Of a stretch of 28,428 nucleotides of DNA, positions 1,639-3,162 are shown in pieces. A program made the position numbers and the translations under genes. The notes beneath the pieces were generated by a model. The model was not told the DNA's origin and made no database searches. It saw nothing but the letters and a program-made list of their open reading frames with translations. Source of the DNA: a virus (Duplodnaviria; Heunggongvirae; Uroviricota; Caudoviricetes); IMG/VR virus record IMGVR_UViG_2534682139_000012; one strand, written 5' to 3'. Each line of letters begins with the position of its first letter. Position 1 is the stretch's first letter.

Positions 1639-1986
1639 TTACTTATCACATAAATCAAATGCAGCCTTAGTGACATCCCCCAGACTCTTTTTTAACCCTG
1701 GGGCGGCATCATTATCTAGCCAAAATGGATTATTGTTATCTAACGGTAACGCACCAAATGTTTTACCTTTTATTCGAGCCAAACCTGTAAGTGCATATAA
1801 CTTATTATCGTCAAAATTCATCACATAAGGATTACCATCAAGACACTGTAATTGAACCTCATCAGAATTAAATGGCCATACCCCATTGAAACTCTCACGT
1901 TCAATAGTTTTAAAAGGCATTGCGACGGCGGAAAAAGAAAACATAGATAAAAAAGTAACTAATAGTTGAACCTTTTTTACTTTCAT
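1639..1986 (-). CDS. Small secreted/periplasmic protein with two Cys, unknown function (AT-rich cargo)
   Basis: 115-aa ORF with an N-terminal signal-peptide-like segment (MKVKKVQLLVTFLSMFSFSAVA) and Cys in QLQCLDG and FDLCDK; lower GC than the phage core; 5 bp from the int start. Confidence 0.6.
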   Translation of the reverse strand: MKVKKVQLLVTFLSMFSFSAVAMPFKTIERESFNGVWPFNSDEVQLQCLDGNPYVMNFDDNKLYALTGLARIKGKTFGALPLDNNNPFWLDNDAAPGLKKSLGDVTKAAFDLCDK

Positions 1987-2015
1987 ATCATTACCTCAAT
2001 TTAGCTCAAGTAAGA

Positions 2016-2666
2016 TTACAAATTAAAAAACGCCCTAGAAATGACACCGCCTACCAAAACCCCTACGCAGATAAAGAATATTATTTCTTTTGGATAAAGT
2101 CGGATTAATTCTGAAGCACGAAGTCGGACTTCTGGTAAGGTCGAACTCTCTGTGTGGCTTGATGCCGATTGTTGCTCTAACCACGACAATGCAGACTGTA
2201 ACTGAGAACGAGTAAGATCGTTTAAACGTCCTGTACCGAAATTGATATGGCAATACCGCAGAAGTTTTTGTCGAAGTCCACAGTCTTCACTGTTACGTAG
2301 TAATAAACTTACAAGAGCCTTACAGGCATCATGATCTTTACATCGCTCAAGCATTGCATGCAGAAAACTCTCCGCTGTTTTATATTGATTTACTGTCATA
2401 TCATCAATACCAGCTACACCAATCTCCGCATGTACTTTTTGCCAAATAATAAACGCTTCAGTATTGCTAGCTTCTGCAATAGCAGCAACCAAGCTATTTA
2501 GCTCCTTACGCTGAGCCTTAAGCAAAGGGCGATCGTCATCATCATTATTCGAAGGGATTGCGATATTGACAGTATGAGAACCATCATATCGCTCTATCTG
2601 AATATTCTTTTCGTGAAAATCACGCCCAGCAACGCGATTGTTTGAACCGTTTGAGTTGACGGCCAT
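2016..2666 (-). CDS. C-terminally membrane-anchored protein of unknown function; its N-terminus shares a motif with the C-terminus of the upstream HTH regulator
   Basis: 216-aa ORF; N-terminus MAVNSNGSNNRVAGRDFHE; C-terminal hydrophobic helix IIFFICVGVLVGGVISRAFF; AT-rich; 15 bp downstream of the repressor-like gene on the same strand. Confidence 0.6.
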   Translation of the reverse strand: MAVNSNGSNNRVAGRDFHEKNIQIERYDGSHTVNIAIPSNNDDDDRPLLKAQRKELNSLVAAIAEASNTEAFIIWQKVHAEIGVAGIDDMTVNQYKTAESFLHAMLERCKDHDACKALVSLLLRNSEDCGLRQKLLRYCHINFGTGRLNDLTRSQLQSALSWLEQQSASSHTESSTLPEVRLRASELIRLYPKEIIFFICVGVLVGGVISRAFFNL

Positions 2667-2681
2667 GTCACCTCCCTACTA

Positions 2682-3086
2682 TCACCTACCCTTAGTTTCG
2701 TTATAGTCACGACCAGCGATACGGTTATTACCACCAGAAATATTTAACTCACGTCCTGATGGCTGAGTTTCCTTTTCACTGATCGCACCTTTTAAAGCCC
2801 CAATCACCGCGTTTTTCACATCTAACGAAGCTGCTCGAAAGCGAGTAATCAACTCCTGCTCATCATCGTTATAAGTTTCAGGTGAGTGAATTCCCAACAC
2901 AACATACTGAACATCAAGGCCAAAACGAGACAGCGCTGCCAAATACGCAGCATCAGGAAAGCTATCTCCTTTCTCATATCTAAGCTGAGTTAGCTTTTTG
3001 ACTCCACCAATGTCGCTCATGGCAACTTGACTAAGTCCCAATCTTTCCCTTTCCTCACGCAACCGCTGACCAATATCATTTTTCAT
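2682..3086 (-). CDS. HTH-XRE family transcriptional regulator, likely the prophage immunity repressor (C/cI analogue); start assigned to the internal ATG
   Basis: MKNDIGQRLREERERLGLSQVAMSDIGGVKKLTQLRYEKGDSFPDAAYLAALSRFGLDVQYVV is a typical XRE helix-turn-helix. It is divergent from the Cox-like operon. The ORF track extends to 3161 via a GTG, but that leaves no room for promoters. The C-terminal tail reads LNISGGNNRIAGRDYNETKGR. Confidence 0.7.
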   Translation of the reverse strand: MKNDIGQRLREERERLGLSQVAMSDIGGVKKLTQLRYEKGDSFPDAAYLAALSRFGLDVQYVVLGIHSPETYNDDEQELITRFRAASLDVKNAVIGALKGAISEKETQPSGRELNISGGNNRIAGRDYNETKGR

Positions 3087-3101
3087 ACAAAAACCTTGAT
3101 A

Positions 3102-3120
3102 GGTATCTTTTTTTGATACC
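3102..3120. promoter_or_regulatory. Perfect inverted repeat GGTATC-T7-GATACC in the divergent repressor/early-operon control region; candidate operator
   Basis: Seen directly at 3102-3120, 16 bp upstream of the proposed repressor start and about 45 bp upstream of the first rightward ORF; another GATACC half-site lies at about 3181-3186. Confidence 0.35.
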
Positions 3121-3162
3121 AAAATGATTTCACGAGCTATTAGATGATCACAATATACCACT

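Follow-up and report, generated by a model that had tools for sequence, protein, structure and literature searches.

A prophage immunity repressor and its putative membrane-anchored partner carry matched, co-varying terminal motifs upstream of a cargo slot before int

The stretch of DNA considered here (the window, 28,428 nucleotides; IMG/VR record IMGVR_UViG_2534682139_000012) is a P2-like prophage that is 97.8% identical over the region of interest to Escherichia phage 520873 (NC_049344; Xuanwuvirus, Peduoviridae), and in intact relatives the prophage adjoins yecA. Our subject is an operon on its minus strand which, starting from the divergent control region, contains genes for an immunity repressor, a protein of 216 amino acids (aa) and a protein of 115 aa, and ends with the integrase gene, int (Table 1). 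A first-pass annotation had placed three co-directional open reading frames (ORFs) at 1639-1986, 2016-2666 and 2682-3161, with gaps of 15, 29 and 5 bp between repressor and int, and this was confirmed. A promoter/terminator scan of 1500-3700 found no terminator-like site between the genes of the operon. The same 1.9-kb block recurred in 525 of 5426 complete Escherichia coli genomes, mostly at 99% identity or more and including Shiga-toxin-producing strains of types O103, O121 and O45, so that the module is common and its gene arrangement is not due to chance.

The longest ORF for the repressor (2682-3161) starts with GTG at 3161 and would encode 159 aa. Because the RefSeq annotation of the gene is 405 bp (134 aa), and because every homologue starts with MKNDIG, the most likely start is the ATG at 3086, giving a protein of 134 aa. 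Several PHROGs labelled "transcriptional repressor" matched it in addition to the one listed in Table 1, while the Pfam helix-turn-helix (HTH) families HTH_31 and HTH_3 did so below their gathering cut-offs; matches in PADLOC were weak and limited to the N-terminal HTH region. The gene is divergent from the early genes for ribbon-helix-helix (RHH) and Cox-like proteins and lies upstream of int. By its HTH and its gene position the protein is classed with XRE/Cro-CI-type immunity repressors, its repressor activity being predicted. One family, phrog_17822, matched the repressor and also 3 of 39 members of the partner family described below, but none of 10 partners scanned individually. Although immunity repressors are usually expected to diverge in the HTH region, the HTH of this family was unusually conserved across distant hosts and phage types, RLREERERLGLSQ being nearly invariant in the repressor alignments.

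The 216-aa protein, encoded immediately downstream, can be assigned to the Flk_N family (PF27202; phrog_5825). All of its close homologues carry PF27202 in precomputed annotations, and the window protein was assigned through them. A model built with AlphaFold2 (AF2), using 33 homologues, gave a helical domain between a disordered N-terminus and a C-terminal helix. The C-terminal transmembrane (TM) helix claimed in the first-pass annotation was borne out, in that the last 35 residues had a mean Kyte-Doolittle hydropathy of 2.42 and the hydrophobic segment was retained in the 33 homologues. With one hydrophobic helix at its extreme C-terminus and no signal peptide, the protein has the features of a tail-anchored inner-membrane protein; its insertion is predicted, and an anchor of this kind is expected to hold it at the inner membrane on the cytoplasmic side. 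The same combination of a Flk_N helical domain and a C-terminal tail anchor occurs in Flk (RflH), the flagellar export regulator of Salmonella and E. coli, which was confirmed by experiment to be a tail-anchored inner-membrane protein (PMC6794478). The possibility that the 216-aa protein is Flk itself was, however, rejected. The NCBIfam profile for Flk (NF007987) scored 58.1 bits (E 8.6e-16) against an equivalog cut-off of 353, aligning residues 37-166 with profile positions 20-149 of 339, and Flk is a chromosomal rather than phage-borne protein of 330-410 aa that has a second repeat region and lacks the N-terminal motif described below.

The Flk_N domain also showed distant similarity to phage antirepressors. 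The family "anti-repressor Ant" (phrog_245) was matched by 22 of the 39 Flk_N family members (best E 2.3e-8) and another family of Ant type (phrog_2127) by 10, whereas the Pfam family ORF6C was matched weakly by 5. BRO-N and KilA-N domains were absent from the 216-aa protein, and a Foldseek search of the PDB with its model yielded no significant match, the top one (E 0.9) being a SaPI2 Stl complex and the rest globins. In a tblastn search of 50,697 deposited phage genomes, it was found only in three distant Ralstonia phages and in a single E. coli phage record that has two accessions. The protein is thus present in about 10% of complete E. coli genomes yet scarce among deposited phage genomes, which may mean that standard induction rarely yields prophages with this switch.

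What connects the two proteins is a motif shared between their facing ends. The repressor ends ...LNISGGNNRIAGRDYNETKGR, and the 216-aa protein starts MAVNSNGSNNRVAGRDFHEK...; the alignment of these ends in the window scored 62, with z = 8.9 relative to composition-preserving shuffles. Both copies lie in termini that are disordered in the AF2 models, i.e., the tail of the repressor and the head of its partner. In the enterobacterial family the partner copy is nearly invariant at G7, N10, R11, G14, D16 and E19. Across lineages the aligned motif was 14-31 aa long, typically 17-20, and some partners had two pseudo-repeats of it. Relative to the rest of the proteins it was enriched in G (2.4x), N (3.5x), Q (1.8x), V (1.8x) and I (1.2x), and depleted in K (0.66x), P (0.65x) and L (0.10x). 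The DNA encoding the two copies was identical at only 30 of 51 nucleotides, with the same codon used for 4 of the 10 identical residues, which argues that the likeness is maintained at the level of protein; a recent duplication of DNA was rejected on the basis of codon usage. In relatives the two genes often overlap by 4 bp, whereas the gap in the window is 15 bp. We also observed that the repressor and partner ORFs share a reading frame, and that 2667-2684 contains three consecutive stops (TGA TAG TAG) followed by GGA GGT GAC (encoding GGD), which includes a Shine-Dalgarno-like GGAGG. Because three consecutive stops separate the in-frame ORFs, read-through between them looks to be actively prevented.

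Homologues of the repressor had lineage-specific tails, and in each lineage the protein encoded downstream started with a matching version of the motif. In Pectobacterium the repressor tail QIFNGDISGQFAGNQIIN is followed by the partner head QEFNGTAQGQFSSRDIIN; the corresponding tails and heads are QQINGPISGGVAGRDFVQ and QEINGDVEGGIAGRDIVR in Rhodocyclaceae, TVDYGNAQIGQASAGDIVN and TVSFGGAQIDQAAAGDINN in Jeongeupia, and GQQFNGPVGTVTSGDVVN and NQQFHDRVHQVAAGDIKN in Pseudomonas. For a quantitative comparison, partners were picked by rule, i.e., as the co-directional ORF that follows the repressor within 40 bp, in a genome set of 80 loci from genome contigs, 5 fetched loci and the window, the repressor alignment being used for the locus search; one locus was used per tail class, which reduces the effect of relatedness. 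Among 47 operonic pairs in 27 tail classes, the mean score was 39.3 for cognate and 22.2 for non-cognate combinations (permutation p<=5e-5). In 13 classes the cognate head came top of the 27, and z values of up to 13 were obtained against composition-preserving shuffles. Similar values were obtained with viral contigs from IMG/VR, which may overlap the genome set (48 pairs, 11 tail classes; cognate 39.9, non-cognate 22.8; permutation p<=5e-5). In Pectobacterium colocasium, pairs of type A (motif GNRVAGRDY) and of type B (Pectobacterium motif FNGxxxGQFxxxxIIN) occurred in one species, the partner matching the repressor in either case, and two motif classes were likewise found in Gilliamella.

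The pair was conserved well beyond E. coli, spanning gamma- and beta-proteobacteria. P2-like prophages of Klebsiella and Serratia had the order HTH, Flk_N, variable gene, int, while in Mu-like prophages of Pectobacterium, Gilliamella and Pseudomonas the HTH-Flk_N pair lay beside transposase genes. Being kept beside this repressor family, and encoding a protein whose end motif co-varies with that of the repressor, the 216-aa gene is, on sequence grounds, a conserved repressor partner and part of the immunity switch, and not cargo. Within the pair, the parts on either side of the motif were exchangeable. E. coli prophages at the yecA site had three different HTH domains, presumably conferring three immunity specificities, joined to the same C-terminal helix, tail and partner; the DNA-binding domain is thus exchangeable, with retention of tail and partner. 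A homologue from Halomonas had the HTH of this family fused to Peptidase_S24, the classical RecA-responsive induction module that acts by LexA-like autocleavage, in place of the tail. On the other side, most partners consisted of Flk_N plus a tail anchor, and those without Flk_N kept the matching N-terminal motif and nearly all had strongly hydrophobic segments, an exception being the partner at locus L073, which had none. The idea that the Flk_N domain binds the motif as a pseudo-substrate is disfavoured by the retention of the motif in partners that lack this domain. There was no all-in-one HTH-Flk_N-TM fusion among 232 repressor homologues or 92 partner representatives. The swaps of HTH, the S24 fusion and the varied bodies of the partners point to a regulatory input on the repressor as the probable role of the motif-bearing parts.

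Two further observations concern members of these families. The alternative partners at loci L025, L033 and L059 are proteins of 260-325 aa with a matching N-terminal motif, a long region resembling a coiled coil and a single TM segment. At the C-terminal end they have a small conserved stretch, on the periplasmic side, in which there are two cysteines (C-x-[FY]-[DA]-G-[KE]-[PT]-[YF]...V-G-[ST]...C-V), which looks like a sensor domain. In Pseudomonas, at loci L055-L094, chromosomal paralogues of the repressor HTH lie upstream of a gene whose product starts like a response regulator (MIRVLVVDDHDLV...). These paralogues lack both the tail motif and the partner, and constitute a negative group.

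The arrangement resembles that of amyloid-signalling pairs, i.e., HET-s/NWD2, the BASS pairs of Bell and NLR proteins, and Bab/Agp (BASS11), in which the same motif of ~17-25 aa is found at the C-terminal end of one protein and the N-terminal end of another, encoded by adjacent, collinear genes. As with the repressor and its partner, these genes overlap or have very short gaps between them, the motifs are rich in G, N, Q and V and poor in L, K and P (the BASS criterion also lists I and sets a length of about 25 aa), some partners have pseudo-repeats of the motif, and a prophage may be the setting; Bab/Agp is a functional amyloid-signalling pair demonstrated in an E. coli prophage. There are also clear differences. 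Neither an NLR (NACHT/NB-ARC) nor a Bell or HeLo domain was recorded at any locus, and here the carrier of the C-terminal copy is a DNA-binding repressor and the carrier of the N-terminal copy a predicted tail-anchored membrane protein. Compared with typical BASS motifs, that of the window is shorter and carries more charge (R, D, E). The pair therefore appears to have the arrangement and composition of BASS systems while lacking the NLR and death effector, and is better described as resembling this class in form than as a member of it. The amyloid-signalling literature that we examined made no mention of HTH proteins or repressors, and full-text searches found no description of the pairing of motifs between repressor and partner, or of a role for the phage Flk_N family.

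A second comparison is with phage antirepressors such as P22 Ant, 186 Tum, VP882 Qtip and CTX RstC, where a second phage protein acts on the repressor post-translationally, as we propose here, and where the PHROGs of the Ant family have sequence similarity to the Flk_N domain of the partner. ICEBs1 ImmA is encoded beside, and co-expressed with, the repressor ImmR, and CTX RstC acts by sequestering or aggregating its repressor. VP882 Qtip, too, is reported to act by sequestration or aggregation of the repressor. Unlike those antirepressors and ImmR-ImmA, the partner described here is predicted to be membrane-anchored, its gene is in the operon of the repressor rather than under LexA or other separate control, and recognition apparently occurs via a duplicated terminal motif that those systems lack. 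Capture of a cytoplasmic repressor at the inner membrane, as proposed below, has a counterpart in Mlc, which is controlled by capture by PtsG, although the proteins are unrelated, there is no paired motif, and that system belongs to the host and not to a phage.

Taken together, we favour the view that the locus comprises a two-protein lysogeny-control module followed by one cargo gene, in which the membrane-tethered partner regulates the repressor via the matched motifs, and to which we would assign a probability of about 0.55. The pair can be classified as a repressor-antirepressor module, one whose logic is that of the paired motifs in amyloid signalling. Within this proposal, functional coupling of repressor and partner is well supported, and from the sequences we infer that the two copies of the motif are in direct contact. 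The direction of the effect, i.e., antirepression and induction or else stabilisation, and the involvement of amyloid-like templating are speculative. The copies would pair by direct association of beta-strands, or possibly by amyloid-like templating, so that the tethered partner would capture or inactivate the repressor, or gate its oligomerisation. The partner would then be an antirepressor, or a sensor controlling the amount of active repressor, and the prophage would gain a membrane-proximal input independent of RecA and the SOS response.

A number of points weigh against this proposal. AF2 gave no model of contact between repressor and partner, and we found no result on binding, localisation, expression or phenotype for any family member in the literature. 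Both genes are co-transcribed, so that a constitutive antirepressor would need a gating signal. The similarity to antirepressors is weak for the window protein itself, which matched Ant with an E value of 0.0042 over ~60 residues, and the best fold match of its model in BFVD, an ORF6C-domain protein, had an E value of 7.8e-3 with a low TM-score. Permutation statistics are inflated by related sequences, the tail classes not being fully independent, and several operonic pairs (those at L031, L045, L077, L081 and L095) had no motif match, although some of these may represent wrong ORF calls. Finally, the pair is without an NLR or Bell domain, and the BASS analogy is one of form only. A bolder version, in which the motifs are true amyloid or prion-like signals and a membrane-anchored sensor nucleates a beta-arch that templates the tail of the repressor and flips the lysis-lysogeny switch, seems to us rather doubtful.

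Several other explanations must be set against the proposed control module. The position of the pair, and its co-transcription with the repressor, are also those of lambda rexAB, which adjoins the repressor gene and is co-transcribed with it, and the partner is a predicted membrane protein; moreover, paired C- and N-terminal motifs in adjacent genes of E. coli prophages are so far known only from an abortive infection (Abi) system. The operon might therefore be an Abi or superinfection-exclusion system like rexAB or sieB and, in its strongest form, one like Bab/Agp, where an infection cue leads to templating, membrane damage and cell death, with the DUF2511 protein encoded by the 115-aa gene adding exclusion in the periplasm. 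Defence-like cargo in the neighbouring slot of relatives, where a cI-int hotspot has been described (PMC9122126), would fit. However, we consider this unlikely. The "effector" that carries the motif is the immunity repressor and not a pore-forming domain of Bell/HeLo type, the partner has just one anchor, at its tail, with hardly any residues in the periplasm, while its Ant-like domain is cytoplasmic and conserved, and the pair is kept across unrelated types of phage while the adjoining cargo turns over. Neither the 216-aa nor the 115-aa protein had a match in PADLOC-DB v2 at E<=1. The operon does share with rexAB/sieB, and with the K139-like hotspot, expression in the lysogen from the repressor operon and a variable slot between repressor and int, but here it is only the third gene that acts as hotspot cargo.

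If the motif were instead a recognition peptide for a membrane protease or chaperone, the two copies would never touch, and the partner would set the half-life of the repressor by competing for, or delivering it to, that host factor. Degrons typically sit in disordered termini, as both copies of the motif do, and lambda CIII protects CII from FtsH. The partner is placed at the membrane, where FtsH and RseP act, and for CII of phage 186 it is documented that these two render P2-family regulators unstable (PMC7708051). Yet a host factor should constrain the motif. Because a single species, Pectobacterium colocasium, holds two very different classes that are each matched within the pair (as also occurs in Gilliamella), and given the co-variation across at least 20 classes, dictation of the motif by a host factor is disfavoured, and we regard the decoy mechanism as quite improbable. 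We would say the same of a constitutive, split membrane-bound transcription factor, in which the motifs form a permanent zipper that tethers the repressor for positioning or inheritance without any switching. Membrane-tethered HTH regulators such as ToxR, CadC and RodZ do exist, the repressor HTH had a weak match to RodZ, and co-transcription in this operon order probably yields comparable amounts of the two proteins; against this stand the lack of any fusion among the homologues surveyed above, the occurrence of a partner without a hydrophobic segment, and the need for a membrane-held repressor still to reach operators in the chromosome. The suggestion that there is no functional link at all, the likeness of the motifs being a by-product of duplication or recombination at a gene boundary and the 216-aa and 115-aa genes unrelated passengers, gains something from the spacing of the copies, only about 40 bp apart, and from the fact that boundaries of phage modules are prone to recombination. 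It is nonetheless highly improbable, since the likeness is in protein rather than DNA, the co-variation is kept across gamma- and beta-proteobacteria and two types of phage, and few alignment columns of the partner family are as conserved as those of the motif.

Little is understood of how P2-family prophages and many Mu-like ones are induced, because most of them have no RecA-cleavable repressor. A membrane-anchored partner coupled through a motif would supply a concrete input for induction or immunity. If this proposal is correct, paired-motif signalling would extend beyond NLR-type immune systems to the control of transcription, and the lineages would furnish a natural collection of more than 20 pairs of motifs that are apparently orthogonal. 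Were the amyloid version true, this would be the first case in bacteria of amyloid templating that controls a transcription factor and viral latency, and the module would be portable, with sensors that are tail-anchored Flk_N proteins, bitopic proteins with a periplasmic cysteine domain, polytopic or soluble.

Table 1. Features of the repressor-int operon and the adjoining early region (positions are those of the window)
Feature	Residues	Position	Strand	Basis
Integrase, int		770..1633	-	Int_N E 4e-32; final gene of leftward operon
DUF2511/YebY-like exported protein, 115 aa		1639..1986	-	PF10709 28.2 bits, cut-off 21; phrog_2950 E 2e-39
Predicted Sec-type signal peptide of 115-aa protein	about 1-22	1921-1986	-	starts MKVKKVQLLVTFLSMFSFSAVA; read from sequence
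Putative repressor partner, 216 aa		2016..2666	-	phrog_5825 E 4e-103, full length
Partner, predicted C-terminal tail anchor	about 195-216	2019-2084	-	hydropathy; AF2 helix 184-215
Partner, Flk_N/Ant-like helical domain	46-173	2148-2531	-	AF2 predicted local distance difference test (pLDDT) 82-94
Partner, N-terminal motif VNSNGSNNRVAGRDFHE	3-19	2610..2660	-	copy of repressor tail motif
Partner, disordered N-terminus	1-41		-	AF2 pLDDT about 40
Predicted immunity repressor, 134 aa		2682..3086	-	phrog_8 E 2.5e-14; AF2; position
Repressor, disordered tail	107-134	2685-2768	-	AF2 pLDDT about 41
Repressor, C-terminal tail motif LNISGGNNRIAGRDYNE	114-130	2697..2747	-	alignment to partner N-terminus
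Repressor, two helices	74-105	2772-2867	-	AF2
Repressor, XRE-type HTH	1-64	2895-3086	-	AF2 five-helix HTH, pLDDT above 90
Divergent control region, 76 bp; presumed Pc/Pe promoters and operators		3087..3162		position only
First rightward early genes: 68-aa RHH (Arc-like) and 67-aa Cox-like proteins		3163..3589	+	weak RHH_1 match

The third gene of the operon behaved quite differently from the second. Among 95 loci with a Flk_N partner, a third ORF was called in 90, and these ORFs belonged to at least 20 unrelated families, including DUF2511, lipoproteins, BRCT-containing proteins and DUF8087; many of their products carry signal peptides or lipoprotein signal peptides. Other yecA-site prophages of E. 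coli had either DUF8087 as their third gene or no third gene. Because so many unrelated families occur just upstream of int while the 216-aa gene is kept, this position is the cargo slot; it is hypervariable, enriched in exported proteins, and occupied here by the DUF2511 gene only. A defence hotspot between cI and int is described for K139-like P2 relatives, which agrees with this location. The first-pass annotation had read both the 216-aa and the 115-aa genes as inserted cargo from no recognised family, in a slot typical of exclusion or conversion functions. That a real cargo slot precedes int, and that the 115-aa gene lies within it, agrees with our results, whereas the 216-aa gene, conserved beside its repressor family in P2-like and Mu-like prophages alike, is not cargo; both proteins belong to existing families (Flk_N/phrog_5825 and DUF2511/phrog_2950), and a defence function finds no backing in PADLOC for either of them. 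The signal peptide that it had proposed for the 115-aa protein agrees with the start of the sequence (MKVKKVQLLVTFLSMFSFSAVA) and with a periplasmic family.

By its match to PF10709, the 115-aa protein is assigned to the DUF2511/YebY family, whose members are periplasmic and have a signal peptide and two conserved cysteines forming a disulfide (PMC8689200). It aligned with the structure of YebY (7N0J) over residues 34-113, up to the C-terminal Cys113, and both disulfide cysteines (C48 and C113) are present. The similarity to YebY, of the E. coli AZY operon, is only distant (E 0.0028) and the window gene, unlike yebY, is phage-borne and not beside yobA/yebZ, although a location next to a recombinase and a CI-type repressor has been noted in passing for yebY homologues of Enterobacteriaceae (PMC8689200). 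MlbQ, a lantibiotic self-resistance protein, shares with YebY and the window protein the fold family, the signal peptide and the two cysteines. A tblastn search of the same 50,697 phage genomes with the DUF2511 protein found the E. coli phage record only. The gene is best read as independent, exchangeable accessory cargo with a predicted periplasmic product; it might act in exclusion at the level of the envelope or, if it resembles MlbQ, bind an antimicrobial peptide, but these are possibilities only.

In relatives, the slot had some distinctive occupants. In Pectobacterium colocasium (L184/L185, 3553-5384), a VasI-family protein is encoded between the Flk_N partner and int, and L184 also has an AAA_15/AAA_21 ATPase, a type typical of defence systems. 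In P2-like prophages of Klebsiella pneumoniae (L003, 6647-7513) it holds a gene whose product, of 288 aa, has a BRCT domain (E 5e-5) at its N-terminus, a domain that to our knowledge is unusual for an accessory gene of a phage.

The first-pass annotation had also described the two genes following the repressor as AT-rich additions. They are indeed AT-rich, the GC content being 0.33-0.44 over 1650-3000 and 0.51-0.60 past about 5100, but the AT-rich tract includes the repressor and the entire early region to about 4800 as well, with the DUF2511 gene as its most AT-rich part (0.33-0.37). For the early rightward genes, NC_049344 annotates an Arc-like repressor and a Cox-like excisionase. The control region between these and the repressor contains candidate short inverted repeats; in the scan of 1500-3700, consensus promoters and terminators showed no excess over shuffled expectation. 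The window int follows the intact 333-aa integrase for 234 residues and then diverges (~position 931), being cut after residue 234 by an IS3-family element at about 931, the transposase gene of which (orfB; rve, HTH_21) spans 1-931 and runs off the left edge of the window. Because int is interrupted in this way, excision of this prophage copy is probably no longer possible.

Elsewhere in the window, the interval between replication gene A and the portal gene, which we take to be the known tin/old cargo hotspot of P2, had its own set of accessory genes. At 11172-12175 there are genes for an Ead/Ea22-like protein of 111 aa (plus strand) and for a 176-aa protein with multiple hydrophobic segments (minus strand, 11645-12175); the latter had no match in Pfam, and neither had one in PADLOC. 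The same interval contains, at 9833-10792 on the plus strand, a full-length gene for an actin-like plasmid-segregation protein of the ParM/StbA type, which had no match in PADLOC but clear matches to StbA_N (E 8e-82) and to the ParM C-terminal domain (E 1e-68).

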